Below, piece after piece: positions 6,042 to 28,341 of a DNA stretch of 64,000 nucleotides. Every line of letters starts with the position of its first letter. Position 1 is the first letter of the stretch. The stretch is taken from positions 9,482 through 73,481 of the forward strand of contig JAHECS010000013.1 of NCBI GenBank assembly GCA_024641635.1, in the 5' to 3' direction. The notes under the pieces were generated by a model that made no database searches, was not told the DNA's origin, and saw only the letters and a list, made by a program, of their open reading frames with translations. Source of the DNA: Actinomycetes bacterium (GTDB taxonomy: Bacteria; Actinomycetota; Actinomycetes; S36-B12). A program made the translations under genes and the position numbers.

Positions 6042-6986
6042 ATGATCAATCACATGCGCATCGCCAACGACATCACCGAGCTGGTCGGCCACACCCCTCT
6101 CGTCCGCCTACGGCATGTGACGGACGGGGCCTCGGCGGAGGTTGCCGCCAAGCTGGAGTTCTTCAACCCGGCCCACTCGGTCAAGGACCGGATCGGGCTG
6201 GCGATGATCGACGCCGCGCAGGAGGCCGGGCTGATCGGGCCAGACACCATCGTGGTCGAGCCCACCAGTGGGAACACCGGCATCGCGCTAGCCATGGTGT
6301 GCGCGGCCCGCGGCATCAAGATCGTCCTCACCATGCCGGAGACGATGTCCGTCGAGCGCCGGGCGCTGCTCCGGGGCTACGGCGCCGAGCTCATCCTCAC
6401 GCCCGGCTCGGAGGGCATGGGCGGCGCCATCGCCAAGGCGACCGAGCTCGCTGCCAGCGACCCCCGCTACTTCATGCCCCAGCAGTTCATGAACGAGGCC
6501 AACCCGGAGGTCCATCGCCGCACCACGGCCGAGGAGATCTGGGACGACACCGAGGGCACCGTCGACATCTTCATCTCTGGCGTGGGCACCGGTGGCACGA
6601 TCACCGGTGTCGGCCAGGTGCTGAAGGATCGCAAGCCGGGAGTCGAGATCATCGCGGTCGAGCCGGCCGCCTCGCCGGTGCTCCAGGGTGGGCCGAAGGG
6701 TCCGCATCCCATCCAGGGGATCGGCGCGGGCTTCATCCCGGCGATCCTCGACACGGAGGTCTACGACGAAGTCATCGGCGTCCAGGCCGACGACGCCATG
6801 GCCATGGCACGCCGTGCCGCCACCGAGGAGGGCCTGCTCGTCGGGATCTCGTCGGGAGCGGCCCTGTGGGCCGCTCGAGAGGTTGCCCAGCGCCCCGAGA
6901 ACGCGGGGAAGCTGATCGTGGTCATCGTGCCCTCCTTCGGCGAGCGGTACCTGTCGACTGCGCTGTTCGCCGGCCTGGCGGAATGA
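6042..6986 (+). CDS. cysK: Cysteine synthase A (O-acetylserine sulfhydrylase)
   Basis: PLP-lysine region [23 protein letters not shown], and [10 protein letters not shown]. An alternative start is at 6054. Confidence 0.9.
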
Positions 6987-24041: not shown

Positions 24042-24332
24042 ATGCCGCGCTCGTCACCTGACGGGGGTGGCTGGACCTTCCTGTCCAACCACGGTCACGT
24101 GCTGGTCGCCCTCAGGGACGAGCCTGACTCCAGGCTGAGCGAGCTGGCGGCTCGGGTGGGCATCAGCCAACGTGCGGTCCAGCTCATCGTCCGGGACCTC
24201 GAGAAGGCCGGGTATGTCGTGCGCGAGCGGTGCGGGCGCCGCAACCACTACACGGTGACGGAGGGCCAACGCCTGAGGCACCCGGCCGAGAGGGAGTCGT
24301 CGGTGGACGACCTCCTGTCCGTCTTCGGCTGA
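24042..24332 (+). CDS. Small winged-helix (MarR/ArsR-like) transcriptional regulator
   Basis: Starts 2 nt after the upstream stop. HTH ..LSELAARVGISQRAVQLIVRDLEKAGYV.. Confidence 0.6.
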   Translation: MPRSSPDGGGWTFLSNHGHVLVALRDEPDSRLSELAARVGISQRAVQLIVRDLEKAGYVVRERCGRRNHYTVTEGQRLRHPAERESSVDDLLSVFG

Positions 24333-24442
24333 CGGCGCGGCCCGGCCCCGCCTGTCCCCACGTCCGCGGCTCGCTGGGCGGTCCTCCACACGCGCGTCCA
24401 CGGTCGTGGCAGTGGACCGGGCGCCGCATGAGGGTCTGCTCC

Positions 24443-25480
24443 ATGACCACCGCCCCCGGACTCCTGTCCCTGCGCAGCCCCAGTGCCCTCGTGGCCGCCC
24501 TCCCGTACCTGCTGGGCTTCCACCCGGCCGACAGCGCGGTCCTCGTGTGGGTGAGCCAGGGCCGCATCCTGCTGACTCAGCGGATGGACCTGCCGGACAA
24601 GCCCGCACTCCTCCCGGCATGGGTCGAGGTCGCATTCGGCCACGACGGTGCACGCCAGGCCGACAGCGTCGTCGTCGCCATGGTGACCGACGATCCTCCC
24701 GTCGCCGCGGTCGTCGACGCACTCCTCGTGCGTGCGGACCACGCCGGCATCGAGGTCCGTGACGTGCTGCACGTACGCGAGGACCGCTGGCGCAGCCTGC
24801 TCTGCGCCGACCCGTCGTGCTGTCCGCGCGAGGGGCGCGCCGTACCACTCTCGACCAGTGACGCCGTGGCGGCCGAGTTCGCGCTCGAGGGTTTCGCGCC
24901 GCTCGCCGCGCGTGGGGACGTCGAGGCCTCGTTCGACGCCGACGAGGAGGCCGTCAGGCTCGTGACGGAGGTGCCGCTCCCACACGTTCACGACCGCGAC
25001 CGCGAGGCGTGGCGCGACGCGCGCGTCTCGCAGACCCTGTCCCTGCTCGTGGACGATCCCGGTCCGTCGTCGGACGCACGGGTGGCGGCCCTCGTCCTGT
25101 CGGGTCTGGCCGACATCCGGGTCAGGGACACCGTGCTCTGGGAGCTCGCGCGTTGGCCGGACGCCACGCTCGCCAGTGCGCTGGGCCGTCTCGTGGACCT
25201 GGTCCGCGCCGCCCCCGCCGGCAGGGTCGCCCCGGTCGCCGCGGTCACGGCGGTCGTCGCGTGGCTGCTCGGCGACGGAGCCCGCGCAGGAATCTCCCTG
25301 CAGCGGGCGCTGGCCGATGATGCGGCGTACTCCCTCGCCGGGCTGCTGGCCGCATCACTGCAGGCGGGACTCGCGCCGGGCCATTGGCGCGCGTCCATGG
25401 CCGAGCTGACGCGTGACGAATGCCGTCACGGAGCCCGGCCCGCCCGTGGGGGGCGGCCCGGTGAGCCGTCCGTGGGGTGA
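24443..25480 (+). CDS. DUF4192 family protein
   Basis: N-terminal ..SPSALVAALPYLLGFHPADSAVLVW.. is characteristic of the actinobacterial DUF4192 family. An alternative start is at 24428. Confidence 0.65.
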   Translation: MTTAPGLLSLRSPSALVAALPYLLGFHPADSAVLVWVSQGRILLTQRMDLPDKPALLPAWVEVAFGHDGARQADSVVVAMVTDDPPVAAVVDALLVRADHAGIEVRDVLHVREDRWRSLLCADPSCCPREGRAVPLSTSDAVAAEFALEGFAPLAARGDVEASFDADEEAVRLVTEVPLPHVHDRDREAWRDARVSQTLSLLVDDPGPSSDARVAALVLSGLADIRVRDTVLWELARWPDATLASALGRLVDLVRAAPAGRVAPVAAVTAVVAWLLGDGARAGISLQRALADDAAYSLAGLLAASLQAGLAPGHWRASMAELTRDECRHGARPARGGRPGEPSVG

Positions 25481-25481
25481 C

Positions 25482-25511
25482 TTGTCGGAGGTCGGCCCTC
25501 ACCGCTATATT
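25482..25511 (+). promoter_or_regulatory. Candidate promoter of the metY-metX leader
   Basis: TTGTCG (25482-25487) - N18 - TATATT (25506-25511). This places a TSS about 7 nt downstream, right at the first G of the SAM-IV aptamer. Confidence 0.4.
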
Positions 25512-25518
25512 CCCCGCA

Positions 25519-25624
25519 GGTCAAGAGTTCCAGTGCATAGCTCCGGCTTGCTGGACGGCAACCCTCCACCGCGGTGGGGTGCTCCGGATGAAGACCTGGC
25601 CCGGAAACCGGGCAAGCGCGGGTC
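25519..25624 (+). promoter_or_regulatory. SAM-IV riboswitch aptamer
   Basis: GGUCAAGAGUUCCAGUGCAUAGCUCCGGCUUGCUGGACGGCAACCCUCCACCGCGGUGGGGUGCUCCGGAUGAAGACC..GGCAAGCGCGGGUC. It aligns nearly base for base with the mycobacterial SAM-IV sequence I recall. It sits upstream of metY/metX, the usual context. Confidence 0.85.
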
Positions 25625-25664
25625 TTGCACAGGGCAGGACCCCGGAGAGTGTGCGAGGTCTGAC

Positions 25665-25697
25665 ATGTGCTGTTGTTGTCGAATGACCCGGCGCTGA
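25665..25697 (+). CDS. Polycysteine leader peptide uORF (MCCCCRMTRR)
   Basis: ATG TGC TGT TGT TGT CGA ATG ACC CGG CGC TGA. GAGG (25655-25658) lies 6 nt upstream. It sits between the SAM-IV aptamer and metY. Confidence 0.5.
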   Translation: MCCCCRMTRR

Positions 25698-25849
25698 CGT
25701 TCGCCGTCGAGAGGCGGCCGTCGGCGCTCCGGCACCGGTAATCCCCGTGCCTGTCGCCCTGCGGGGGCGACGCATTGATCCCAGCCCCACCATCCAGCTC
25801 CACCATCCAGCGCCCGTTGCGGCGCACCCGAACTGACAGAGGAGTCCCC

Positions 25850-27166
25850 ATGAGCACCGCCTGGTCCTTCGAGACGAAGCAGATCCACGCCGGCCAGTCG
25901 CCGGACGGCACCACCAACGCGCGAGCACTGCCGATCTACCAGACGACGTCGTACACCTTCAATGACACGACGCACGCCGCCAACCTGTTCGGGCTCAAGG
26001 AGCTCGGCAACATCTACACCCGGATCATGAACCCCACGCAGGCAGTGGTCGAGGACCGGATCGCCGCGCTCGAGGGCGGGGTCGCGGGTCTCCTGGTGGC
26101 CAGTGGCCAGGCCGCGGAGACGCTCGCCATCCTGAACATCGCCGAGGCGGGGGACCACATCGTCTCCAGCCCGAGCCTCTACGGCGGCACCTACAACCTG
26201 TTCCACTACACGCTGCCGAAGCTGGGCATCGAGTGCTCGTTCGTCGACAACCCCGACGACCCCGAGTCCTGGCGCGCCGCCGTGCGACCCAACACCAAGC
26301 TGTTCTTCGGCGAGTCGATCGCCAACCCGCGCAACGACCTGCTCGACATCGAGGCGGTCGCGACGGTGGCGCACGAGGTGGGCGTGCCGCTGATCGTGGA
26401 CAACACGGTGGCCACCCCGTACCTCATCCGGCCGCTCGAGTGGGGCGCCGACATCGTCGTCCACTCCGCGACCAAGTACCTCGGAGGGCATGGCACAGCG
26501 GTGGCCGGCGCGATCGTCGACGGTGGGACCTTCGACTATGCCCAGTACCCGGAGCGGTACCCGAACTACAACGAGCCCGATCCCAGCTACCACGGACTCG
26601 TGTACGCCCGGGACCTGGGCGTCGGGTCGGCGTTCGGGGCCAACCTGTCGTTCATCCTCAAGGCCCGGGTCCAGCTCCTGCGCGATCTTGGTGCTGCGGT
26701 GTCGCCGTTCAACGCCTTCCTCATCGCCCAGGGCATCGAGACGCTCTCGCTGCGAATCGAGCGGCACGTCCAGAACGCCAAGGCGGTCGCCGACTTCCTG
26801 GTCGGGCGCGAGGAGGTCGAGTCGGTCAACTACTCGGGACTCGCCTCGAGCCCGTGGTACGAGCTCGGCCGCAAGTACGCGCCTCTCGGGACCGGGGCGG
26901 TCCTCAGCTTCGAGATCGTCGGCGGTGTCGACGCCGGACGTGCCTTCGTCGAGGCCCTCGAGCTGCACAGCCACGTGGCGAACATCGGAGACGTGCGCAG
27001 CCTCGTCATCCATCCCGCCTCGACCACGCACTCCCAGCTCTCCCCCGAGGAGCAGGCAGCGGCGGGAGTGACCCCGGGGCTGGTGCGCCTCGCTGTGGGC
27101 ATCGAGAGCATCGACGACATCCTCGCCGACCTCGACGCGGGTTTCCGGGCCGCCAAGCAGGGCTGA
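25850..27166 (+). CDS. metY: O-acetylhomoserine aminocarboxypropyltransferase (sulfhydrylase)
   Basis: SD GAGGAG upstream. ..ETKQIHAGQ..YQTTSY..HSATKYLGGHG.. (PLP-lysine motif). Confidence 0.9.
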   Translation: MSTAWSFETKQIHAGQSPDGTTNARALPIYQTTSYTFNDTTHAANLFGLKELGNIYTRIMNPTQAVVEDRIAALEGGVAGLLVASGQAAETLAILNIAEAGDHIVSSPSLYGGTYNLFHYTLPKLGIECSFVDNPDDPESWRAAVRPNTKLFFGESIANPRNDLLDIEAVATVAHEVGVPLIVDNTVATPYLIRPLEWGADIVVHSATKYLGGHGTAVAGAIVDGGTFDYAQYPERYPNYNEPDPSYHGLVYARDLGVGSAFGANLSFILKARVQLLRDLGAAVSPFNAFLIAQGIETLSLRIERHVQNAKAVADFLVGREEVESVNYSGLASSPWYELGRKYAPLGTGAVLSFEIVGGVDAGRAFVEALELHSHVANIGDVRSLVIHPASTTHSQLSPEEQAAAGVTPGLVRLAVGIESIDDILADLDAGFRAAKQG

Positions 27167-27168
27167 TC

Positions 27169-28341
27169 GTGGCCGACTACGGGCCGCTCTCCTACGAGGG
27201 TCTTCCTCCCGCCAGTTCCGCCTGGCGGGAGGGAGACCCCGTGGGCGAGCGGCACTTCGTCGACGTGGGGAACTTGACCACGGAACTGGGTGCAGCCATC
27301 CCCGACGTGCGGGTCGCGTACCAGACCTGGGGCAGGCTCAACGAGGACCGTTCGAACGCCGTCTACATCTGCCACGCCCTCACGGGAGACGCGCACGTGG
27401 CCGGTTCGGCCGGGCAGGGCCATGCGACCGACGGGTGGTGGCACGGACTCGTCGGCCCGGGCAGCGCCGTGGACACCGACGAGTGGTTCGTCGTCTGCGC
27501 CAACGTCCTCGGTGGCTGCCAGGGCACCACGGGACCGTCCTCGACCGCTCCCGACGGTCGGCCGTGGGGCAGTCGGTTCCCGGTGATCACGGTCGGCGAC
27601 ATGGTCGAGGTCGAGCACCGGCTGACCGATGTCCTCGGGATCGACTCATGGGCGCTCATGCTGGGGCCGTCGCTGGGGGGCATGCGCGTGCTCGAGTGGA
27701 TGGTCCGCTTCCCCGAGCGGGTTCGGGGCGGTCTCGTGCTGGGGTCCACCGCCGCCGTCACCGCCGATCAGATCGGCACGCACGCCACTCAGATCGCGGC
27801 CATCGAGGGCGATCCCGGATACCGCGGCGGCGACTACTACGACGCACGCGCCGGCGAGGGCCCCCATCGCGGCATGGGCCTGGCCCGCCGCATCGCGCAC
27901 CTCACCTACCGGTGCGAGACGGAGCTCGATCTCCGTTTCGGGCGTGATGCCCAGGACGGCGAGGATCCCTACGACGGTGGTCGGTTCGCCGTCGAGTCCT
28001 ACCTCGATCACCACGCCGACAAGCTCGCACGCCGTTTCGACGCCAACACCTACGTCGTGCTCACGCGCGCCATGAGCCTGTTCGATCTCGGCCGCGGCCG
28101 CGGCGGCGTGGCGGCCGCGCTCGGCGGCATCGACGCGCCCTTGACCGTGGTGGGCATCGACTCGGATCGCCTGTTCCCCGTTCGGCTCCAGCAGGAGATC
28201 GTCGAGCTGGCGCCCGGGGCGGACCGTCTGCACCTGCTCCTGTCGCCGTATGGGCACGACGGCTTCCTGGTCGAGGACGAGCAGGTGGGCGTCTTCGTGG
28301 CGCACGCCCTCCATCGGGTCCGCCGCAGCGATCCGCGCTGA
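27169..28341 (+). CDS. metX: Homoserine O-acetyltransferase
   Basis: GTG start 2 nt after the metY stop. ..NAVYICHALTGDAH..GPSLGGM.. (nucleophile elbow) ..GHDGFL.. Confidence 0.9.
   Translation: MADYGPLSYEGLPPASSAWREGDPVGERHFVDVGNLTTELGAAIPDVRVAYQTWGRLNEDRSNAVYICHALTGDAHVAGSAGQGHATDGWWHGLVGPGSAVDTDEWFVVCANVLGGCQGTTGPSSTAPDGRPWGSRFPVITVGDMVEVEHRLTDVLGIDSWALMLGPSLGGMRVLEWMVRFPERVRGGLVLGSTAAVTADQIGTHATQIAAIEGDPGYRGGDYYDARAGEGPHRGMGLARRIAHLTYRCETELDLRFGRDAQDGEDPYDGGRFAVESYLDHHADKLARRFDANTYVVLTRAMSLFDLGRGRGGVAAALGGIDAPLTVVGIDSDRLFPVRLQQEIVELAPGADRLHLLLSPYGHDGFLVEDEQVGVFVAHALHRVRRSDPR

Follow-up and report, generated by a model that had tools for sequence, protein, structure and literature searches.

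The classical attenuators are exemplified by trpL, hisL, leuL and the pyrBI leader, with rare CUA codons providing sensitivity in leuL. The mgtA leader of Salmonella reportedly combines a Mg2+-sensing RNA, a proline-codon upstream open reading frame (uORF), mgtL, and Rho-dependent termination. In mycobacteria, polycysteine leaderless short open reading frames (ORFs) such as Ms5788A and Rv2334A, which make up a 'Cys ribulon', are Cys-responsive attenuators, and in the case of Ms5788A only, the Cys tract pairs with a downstream Shine-Dalgarno sequence (SD) that is freed by the stalled ribosome; that paper makes no mention of any riboswitch (Canestrari et al., 2020, 10.1101/834739). Cys-run leader peptides with no terminators, for which Rho was suspected, have also been predicted before cys operons and cbs in Actinobacteria, where no RNA element was found for methionine genes (Seliverstov et al., 2005, PMC1262725). 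In Mycobacterium tuberculosis, the pe20 Mbox-rv1805A riboswitch acts on the translation of a small uORF, and termination there depends on Rho (D'Halluin et al., 2026, PMC12810186); B12 riboswitches are combined with uORFs of metE and ppe2 (Kipkorir et al., 2024, PMC11260477). Here we describe the leader of a metY-metX operon in a 64,000-nt stretch of DNA (the window) from an Actinomycetes bacterium (assembly GCA_024641635.1, contig JAHECS010000013.1). This leader contains a 33-nt uORF encoding MCCCCRMTRR (25665-25697, forward strand, from the ATG at 25665 to the TGA at 25695-97).

We hold it probable, from the sequence and its relatives, that this is a genuinely translated leader ORF lying within the expression platform of a SAM-IV riboswitch, where it would act as a riboswitch-gated sensor of Cys-tRNA for metY-metX; one mRNA leader here probably reads both S-adenosylmethionine (SAM) and cysteine supply. 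The leader can be regarded as a combination of a riboswitch-controlled uORF and a polycysteine sensor ORF, and is filed in neither family. As far as we found, the two parts have been published separately and their combination has not: a full-text literature search for 'SAM-IV' with 'uORF' returned nothing relevant, the literature searched held no account of a SAM-IV expression platform, and Rv3340/metC is not mentioned in the M. tuberculosis Ribo-seq and VapC4-stalling papers searched. An earlier note, made from the sequence of the window, had read the uORF as a ribosome-stalling sensor of Cys-tRNA charging; it missed the adjacent SAM-IV riboswitch, which turns a stand-alone attenuator into a two-input leader.

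Like the polycysteine ORFs of mycobacteria, the uORF is tiny and unannotated and carries two or more Cys codons in a row. It precedes, in the same orientation, an actinobacterial operon for sulfur metabolism, it is accompanied by no intrinsic terminator, and ribosome pausing on the Cys codons is the proposed sensor. However, it is led by an SD inside a transcript headed by SAM-IV rather than being leaderless (the promoter is a predicted one), its Cys run is near the start (codons 2-5) rather than at the 3' end, and its target, metY-metX of the homocysteine/methionine branch, is outside the operons described for polycysteine ORFs. Its similarities to the riboswitch-controlled uORFs of M. tuberculosis are that the first SD and start codon past the aptamer are those of a small ORF, that the platform would be translational, with a candidate anti-SD/SD pairing, that there is no intrinsic terminator, and that a pyrimidine- or C-rich possible Rho utilization (rut) site lies in the leader of an organism possessing Rho. 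The differences are that the aptamer is of the SAM-IV type and that the uORF, of about 10 codons, carries a run of rare codons for one amino acid. This rare-codon run is a plausible second sensory input, and an amino-acid-sensing uORF in a riboswitch leader is absent from the M. tuberculosis riboswitch-uORF papers, to the extent that their text was available.

The uORF consists of the codons ATG TGC TGT TGT TGT CGA ATG ACC CGG CGC TGA. Its four Cys codons (TGC TGT TGT TGT, 25668-25679) directly follow the start, exactly as the earlier note described, and are succeeded by a conserved rare CGA (25680-82) and an ATG (25683-85). An SD, GAGG (25655-58, forward strand), lies inside the conserved GCGAGGUC, 6 nt before the ATG. 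That TGT is the minor Cys codon, an impression previously gained from a few genes in the window, is borne out across the genome (3.06 Mb, 69.5% GC): in 1240 long ORFs with high GC at the third codon position (GC3), 216 TGT codons stand against 3395 TGC, i.e., 6% TGT, and Cys accounts for 0.7% of all codons. A single tRNA-Cys(GCA) was detected by ARAGORN, so UGU is decoded by G·U wobble, and the CGA codon is likewise read by wobble, by a tRNA-Arg(ACG) presumably modified to ICG.

A run of this kind does not occur at background frequency. The raw six-frame count of runs of at least three Cys codons (258 in the genome, mostly TGCTGCTGC) was dropped as an uninformative background because it is dominated by off-frame CTG/GCT repeats within genes; it was replaced by 8825 intergenic short ORFs of 4-30 codons, delimited by a crude GC3-based coding mask. 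Among these, the uORF is the sole one with at least four consecutive Cys codons, and also the sole one that combines at least three Cys codons with a co-oriented gene no more than 400 nt away. MCC or VCC also begins a few further short ORFs, which precede genes for a solute-binding protein, a transposase, RsgA, a sensor kinase and an SRPBCC-like protein. The uORF is real and non-random.

The SAM-IV aptamer (RF00634) extends over 25519-25624 on the forward strand. Its match covers the full covariance model (positions 1-116) with 104.9 bits and an E-value of 1.2e-19, well above the curated gathering score of 38, and it is the sole SAM-IV in this genome; no other Rfam family was found in 24500-27000 at E up to 1. 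From its family, the aptamer is predicted to bind SAM and repress the downstream genes. A promoter-like site, TTGTCG-18-TATATT (25482-25511, forward strand), is the only such site in 25300-25950 and did not arise in any of 50 shuffles, and in relatives the -35/-10 pair (TTGTC with TATAGT or TATATT) is kept about 8 nt before the aptamer. Judging by its position, this site would start transcription on the first aptamer base or shortly ahead of it. In the same interval no second promoter before the uORF and no intrinsic terminator-like site was detected. The uORF starts 40 nt past the end of the aptamer model and metY starts 225 nt past it; of the SDs and start codons past the aptamer, those of the uORF, not those of metY, therefore come first. 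With the sole promoter-like site at the aptamer and a GAGG SD, the uORF is internal to a riboswitch-led mRNA and SD-led, not leaderless. The gene upstream of the promoter (24230-25480) encodes a DUF4192 protein (170.8 bits) and is unrelated to the leader.

The whole arrangement is found again in over 70 species genomes of Actinobacteria, spread over several families and including cultured Ornithinimicrobium. Its parts follow one another as aptamer, hairpin, SD, the ORF M-x-C(2-4)-R-M-x-x-R-stop, a second hairpin with the stop codon in it, C-rich tract and metY. A sample based on SAM-IV comprised 41 genomes (the source and 40 relatives), 37 of them with SAM-IV, and 30 loci were compared. Every SAM-IV locus before a MetY-like gene carries an SD-led uORF 38-42 nt past the aptamer, with the exception of one short-leader locus (L030), and among the same 30 loci no uORF was found where SAM-IV precedes other genes. 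The carriers of this sample come both from within the genus and from other families. A second sample, of 80 MetY loci from species genomes, yielded 27 distinct versions of the uORF. Long leaders, with about 190-330 nt between aptamer core and metY, carry the uORF and belong mostly to metagenome-assembled genomes (MAGs) of 'Ca. Nanopelagicales' or Actinomycetales; leaders of Knoellia, Intrasporangium, Arthrobacter and Terrabacter are short and lack it, and in the shortest of all the SD and ATG of metY follow directly on the aptamer tail. Scanning the species genomes for the exact pattern GCAAGCGCGG-N35-65-TGTTGTCGAATG produced matches in 53, of which 49 are genuine and 44 have a MetY motif within about 100-310 nt. 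Cultured carriers are Ornithinimicrobium cavernae, O. murale and Ornithinimicrobium sp. F0845; O. cavernae is without the MetY motif, yet has the whole architecture before a MetY homologue, with different hairpin and SD sequences. In a Mycobacteriales MAG the peptide is VCCRMCRCS, ending at a stop codon.

In 25 of these relatives the uORF sequences could be compared codon by codon, and they behave as a reading frame. The distance from ATG to Cys run is 3, 6 or 9 nt (10, 13 and 2 cases) and always in frame, the spacer between SD and start is 5-8 nt in 24 of the 25, and the length is 10 codons in 13 and 9 codons in seven. Where CGC, CCG or CGG follows the Cys run, the triplet has replaced the third Cys codon inside a fixed 10-codon frame and is not an insertion. 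Codon choice runs opposite to that of the neighboring genes: TGT outnumbers TGC by 60 to 14 in the uORFs, compared with 1 TGT and 11 TGC in metY of the same loci (Fisher p 2e-6), and CGA makes up 23 of 60 Arg codons, compared with 30 of 413 in metY (p 2e-9), these p-values taking no account of shared ancestry. Counted from its end, the run has TGT as its last three Cys codons in 24/25, 22/25 and 13/15 cases, and TGC as its fourth from last in 6/6.

Between aptamer and uORF lies hairpin H0, GGGUCUUGC-ACAGG-GCAGGACCC (25620-25642, forward strand), whose 5' arm shares the final bases of the aptamer model. It has 9 pairs and is near-invariant across 24 sequences, in which 2 compensatory changes occur. 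In its 3' arm, GACCC complements GGUC of the uORF SD region, which makes this arm a candidate anti-SD, and the 3' strand of aptamer helix P1 (AGACC) can pair with either the SD or the H0 5' arm when P1 is open, at about -10.4 kcal/mol each. The approximate duplex energies are -16.8 kcal/mol for H0, -9.9 for the H0 3' arm with the SD, and -10.4 for the P1 3' strand with the SD. The H0 5' arm is imitated by the SD region in L003, L056 and L110 (Mycobacterium), but in neither L042 nor Ornithinimicrobium. In another clade of the same order (L051-L055), SAM-IV is followed by an H0-type hairpin and a second hairpin, GGACCCC...GGGGTC, with no uORF; this layout suggests a family of SAM-IV expression platforms that work as GGUC/GACC helix relays.

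The end of the uORF enters a two-tier hairpin, H1 (25690-25728, forward strand, -28.5 kcal/mol), in whose outer 5' arm the stop codon lies. The outer stem joins 25690-99 to 25719-28 and the inner stem 25703-08 to 25713-18. In 57 distinct leaders, the H1 region folds more stably than its dinucleotide shuffles (mean z -1.77) and the stop codon is paired in 45, and compensatory changes are seen in relatives (GCUGACG/CGUCAGC, GCUGAG/CUCAGC, GCUAGG/CCUGGC). The earlier note had proposed attenuator-like alternative helices here. The three 5-nt segments on which that proposal stood are indeed mutually complementary, but as isolated helices they reach only -7.5 and -6.7 kcal/mol, and what the relatives keep is the single H1 hairpin. 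A classical set of mutually exclusive helices (1:2, 2:3, 3:4) was rejected, as there is one two-tier hairpin and no conserved alternative structure downstream; hairpins H2 (25731-51) and H3 (25752-72, both forward strand), present in the minimum free energy and centroid structures, vary among relatives and are not conserved in sequence. Pairing of the Ms5788A type, between Cys tract and downstream SD, was likewise discarded: no duplex is conserved and the change in accessibility of the metY SD is negligible.

The uORF shares with the classical attenuators a short leader ORF, a run of regulatory codons and the use of rare codons, and its end reaches into the 5' arm of a stable hairpin, as in the trp 1:2 pause hairpin and the pyrBI attenuator hairpin. 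In contrast to them, it has no U-tract terminator and no conserved mutually exclusive helices, and its regulatory codons precede the hairpin instead of lying in segment 1. Two side observations concern the stop codon. In L006 (1645-1704) and L138, a 1-nt length difference shifts the usual TGA out of frame, and the uORF then runs through the whole of H1 to a TAG in its 3' arm (peptide MCCCCRMRAAEPRRLRATP), with CCGCTGA...TAGCGG retained. In most relatives, the base after the stop UGA (25695-25698) is C or G. UGA-C is a slow termination context in E. coli, and, by analogy, if it is slow here too it could lengthen the stay of the ribosome on H1.

Downstream of the hairpins, a C-rich, G-poor, rut-like tract (25770-25829, forward strand) holds 30 C and 11 G in 60 nt. 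It ranks in the top 1.3% of random genome segments, its level is reached by 1.8% of 555 real upstream intergenic regions, and C-richness is kept as a property in relatives (median C-G 17.5). It includes CCACCATCCAGC twice, as a direct repeat at 25787-25798 and 25800-25811; other short C/A-rich repeats occupy this place in relatives, such as CCCATA/CCATAC in L025 and L036 and ATCCGAATGC-like units in L050. No conserved structure was found across relatives in the 95 nt before metY. A rho gene is present in the genome (654 bits). Rho-dependent premature termination within the leader is the likeliest candidate for the link to metY, its proxies being the excess of C over G, the presence of rho and the lack of an intrinsic terminator; this route is favored because there is neither an intrinsic terminator nor a conserved helix that sequesters the metY SD. 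In these respects the mgtA leader is the closest functional analogue, as both would combine a ligand-sensing RNA with a short ORF reporting one amino acid and use Rho-dependent attenuation in place of an intrinsic terminator. The two leaders have neither sequence, ligand, amino acid, phylum nor regulated function in common, and whereas the mgtA uORF sits in documented exchanging stem-loops, no conserved alternative pairing was found here.

The regulated genes belong to sulfur assimilation. metY (25850-27166, forward strand), which starts 152 nt past the end of the uORF behind its own SD, GAGGAG (25839-25844, forward strand; AAGGAG or GAGGAG in relatives), is annotated as a bifunctional O-acetylhomoserine/O-acetylserine (OAH/OAS) sulfhydrylase (PF01053, 440 bits; NF005872, 812.7 bits against a cut-off of 703). 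metX (27169-28341, forward strand), encoding homoserine O-acetyltransferase (NF047917, 525.5 bits against a cut-off of 475), has a GTG start 3 nt past the metY stop. The window also contains cysK, as had been pointed out (6060-6959), and a full-length cystathionine beta-synthase is encoded on another contig (C3:23508-24869, 664 bits against a cut-off of 510); given this enzyme, reverse transsulfuration from homocysteine to cysteine is possible in the organism. MetY of this clade (L001-L056) has 0-2 Cys in about 438 residues, so the 10-codon leader holds more, and the low Cys content of MetY may be a form of sulfur economy in a sulfur-assimilation enzyme.

Taken as a riboswitch-gated Cys-tRNA sensor, the leader would work as follows. 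Binding of SAM would decide whether the uORF SD is open, through competition between H0 and the helix of the H0 3' arm with the SD. When Cys-tRNA is low, the ribosome would stall on codons 2-5, about 10 nt short of H1, which would stay closed; when the A site holds the last Cys codon, the front of the ribosome would be at about 25689, the foot of H1. With ample Cys-tRNA, the ribosome would get to the stop codon and melt H1. The state of the ribosome (absent, stalled before H1, or on H1) would set readthrough into metY, most probably via Rho at the C-rich tract, and the leader would in this way integrate a signal from the methionine branch (SAM) with cysteine supply for an enzyme that uses the shared sulfide pool.

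The polarity of this control is harder to assign. With regard to SAM, the overlap of the H0 5' arm with the conserved 3' end of the aptamer favors the usual polarity, in which SAM would capture the 5' arm, leaving the 3' arm to mask the SD and turn the uORF off; pairing of the P1 3' strand with the SD or with the H0 5' arm would give the opposite. With regard to cysteine, we lean slightly toward derepression of metY upon cysteine starvation, which to our knowledge is the rule for every known codon-run leader peptide; besides those leaders, the bifunctional OAH/OAS annotation and the cystathionine beta-synthase incline us this way. The reverse, in which starvation represses metY and cysteine synthesis is given priority for sulfide, is a serious possibility. 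A two-input logic gate, in which the riboswitch would act on the genes only by turning a ribosome-based amino-acid sensor on or off, with SAM setting uORF initiation, Cys-tRNA setting the melting of H1 and their combination deciding Rho-dependent readthrough into metY-metX, is put forward only tentatively. In an inverted version of this gate, compatible with the helix energies, SAM-stabilized P1 together with H0 would leave the SD open, and completed translation of the uORF would repress metY. If this were true, repression would need both SAM and cysteine, a multivalent control that suits an enzyme annotated for both branches.

Several results weigh against the uORF being a Cys-tRNA sensor of this kind. 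In equilibrium folding with RNAfold, which models neither the ligand nor the pseudoknot of the aptamer, the state of the aptamer had no consistent link to accessibility of the uORF SD (0.41, 0.40, 0.46). Equilibrium folding with the ribosome in different positions gave similar values for the metY SD (0.50 free, 0.54 stalled, 0.48 at the stop) and for exposure of the C-rich tract (0.47, 0.48, 0.48), and since the uORF stop lies about 75-130 nt upstream of that tract, the ribosome cannot mask it directly. No Cys leader was found in this genome upstream of cysK or of the cystathionine beta-synthase gene, and a genome-wide 'Cys ribulon' such as that of mycobacteria was rejected, there being no other Cys-leader loci here. 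The rationale first offered, competition of MetY with CysK for sulfide, gives one plausible direction; a second, derepression on cysteine starvation, is equally sensible in view of the bifunctional annotation and the cystathionine beta-synthase. Three relatives have a uORF with a single Cys codon (L018, MRCRMPSS; L038, MFCSLRMR; and L110, a Mycobacterium MAG, with an SD-led VRSCR at the equivalent place, each ending at a stop codon), which implies that Cys sensing is not the sole role of the uORF; these loci are natural variants without the Cys run and useful for comparison. Finally, the CGA-ATG pair, retained in L018 and L038, is at least as conserved as the Cys run. The idea of a Cys-tRNA-charging sensor therefore survives in part: it fits the conserved SD, start and stop, the in-frame run, the rare wobble-read TGT and the mycobacterial precedent, but the alternative helices once proposed for it are not conserved and the one-Cys relatives weaken it.

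The one-Cys relatives and the CGA-ATG pair also speak for a different explanation, namely, that the uORF is a riboswitch relay only, with SAM-controlled translation coupled to Rho termination or mRNA stability and no sensing of Cys, the TGT and CGA codons merely serving efficient initiation in a GC-rich mRNA by making the start of the ORF AU-rich and unstructured. The one-Cys relatives retain the uORF, the SD and the layout with the stop codon in a hairpin, the uORF is the first start after the aptamer, a place that metY takes in short-leader relatives, and both the Mbox-rv1805A (PMC12810186) and the B12-uORF leaders (PMC11260477) of M. tuberculosis offer precedents. However, any AU-rich codons would do for such a relay, yet two to four consecutive Cys codons stand before a sulfur-assimilation operon in more than 70 genomes, although Cys is so scarce among the codons of the genome and in MetY itself; moreover, at least two consecutive Cys codons sufficed for Cys-responsive control in M. 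smegmatis (10.1101/834739). We consider a relay without Cys sensing unlikely. From the comparison of relatives, the basal role of the uORF is presumably that of the ORF regulated by the riboswitch, with the Cys run as an added, losable input.

A further explanation is suggested by the UGUUGUCGAAUG block, which is near-invariant, synonymous sites included, while the flanking uORF codons vary, and whose codon bias opposes genomic usage: it might be a conserved RNA element, such as a protein or small RNA site or a tertiary contact of an extended riboswitch, with the ORF incidental. Against this, the frame of the block is always that of a start preceded by an SD, although the distance from ATG to run takes three values, the stop lies at a conserved distance inside a conserved hairpin, and SAM-IV is the only Rfam family in the region. 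A search for pairing partners found none conserved upstream or downstream (mean z +0.07 and -0.20 versus shuffles, with scattered targets), and base pairing was accordingly rejected as the cause of TGT/CGA conservation. An RNA element in place of a reading frame is thus quite improbable. The synonymous-site invariance could nevertheless reflect an RNA-level constraint that went undetected, a further point on the negative side for a Cys-tRNA sensor; possible causes are selection on decoding, both rare codons being read by wobble, and selection for a start region free of structure.

Slightly more improbable still is that the peptide itself is the effector, through arrest by a nascent C-C-R-M chain or sensing in the exit tunnel (as in TnaC or Erm-like leaders), or through some function of a thiol-rich peptide. 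Cys-Cys-Arg-Met is conserved as a unit across families, and conserved non-Cys residues in some polycysteine short ORFs were taken to suggest ribosomal interaction (Canestrari et al., 10.1101/834739). Conservation here is, however, at the level of codons (TGT, CGA) and not of residues alone, with free variation at codon 2 and at the C-terminal end. While the ribosome is on the Cys codons, the peptide lacks the length to reach across the exit tunnel, and no homologous free-standing peptide gene was seen. As for a functionless chance ORF in a GC-rich intergenic region, short frames and six-frame Cys runs are common, but the uORF is unique among the intergenic short ORFs, and the explanation is effectively refuted by conservation, with SD, frame and stop retained in over 70 genomes of different species from several families.

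Riboswitches are commonly regarded as an alternative to leader-peptide attenuators, and the leader described here suggests that the two can be joined. If the proposed reading is true, a metabolite-sensing RNA gates a ribosome-based sensor of a second metabolite at the sulfide branch point between methionine and cysteine. If confirmed, it would mean that multi-input control can be achieved without intrinsic terminators, from a riboswitch, a 10-codon ORF and Rho. With this leader, polycysteine sensor ORFs are no longer confined to the leaderless cys operons of mycobacteria, and ORFs of 30 nt such as this Cys leader escape gene callers. The proposal can be tested in cultured Ornithinimicrobium species, and it would explain the long, uninterpreted spacers between SAM-IV aptamer and metY in many Actinobacteria.

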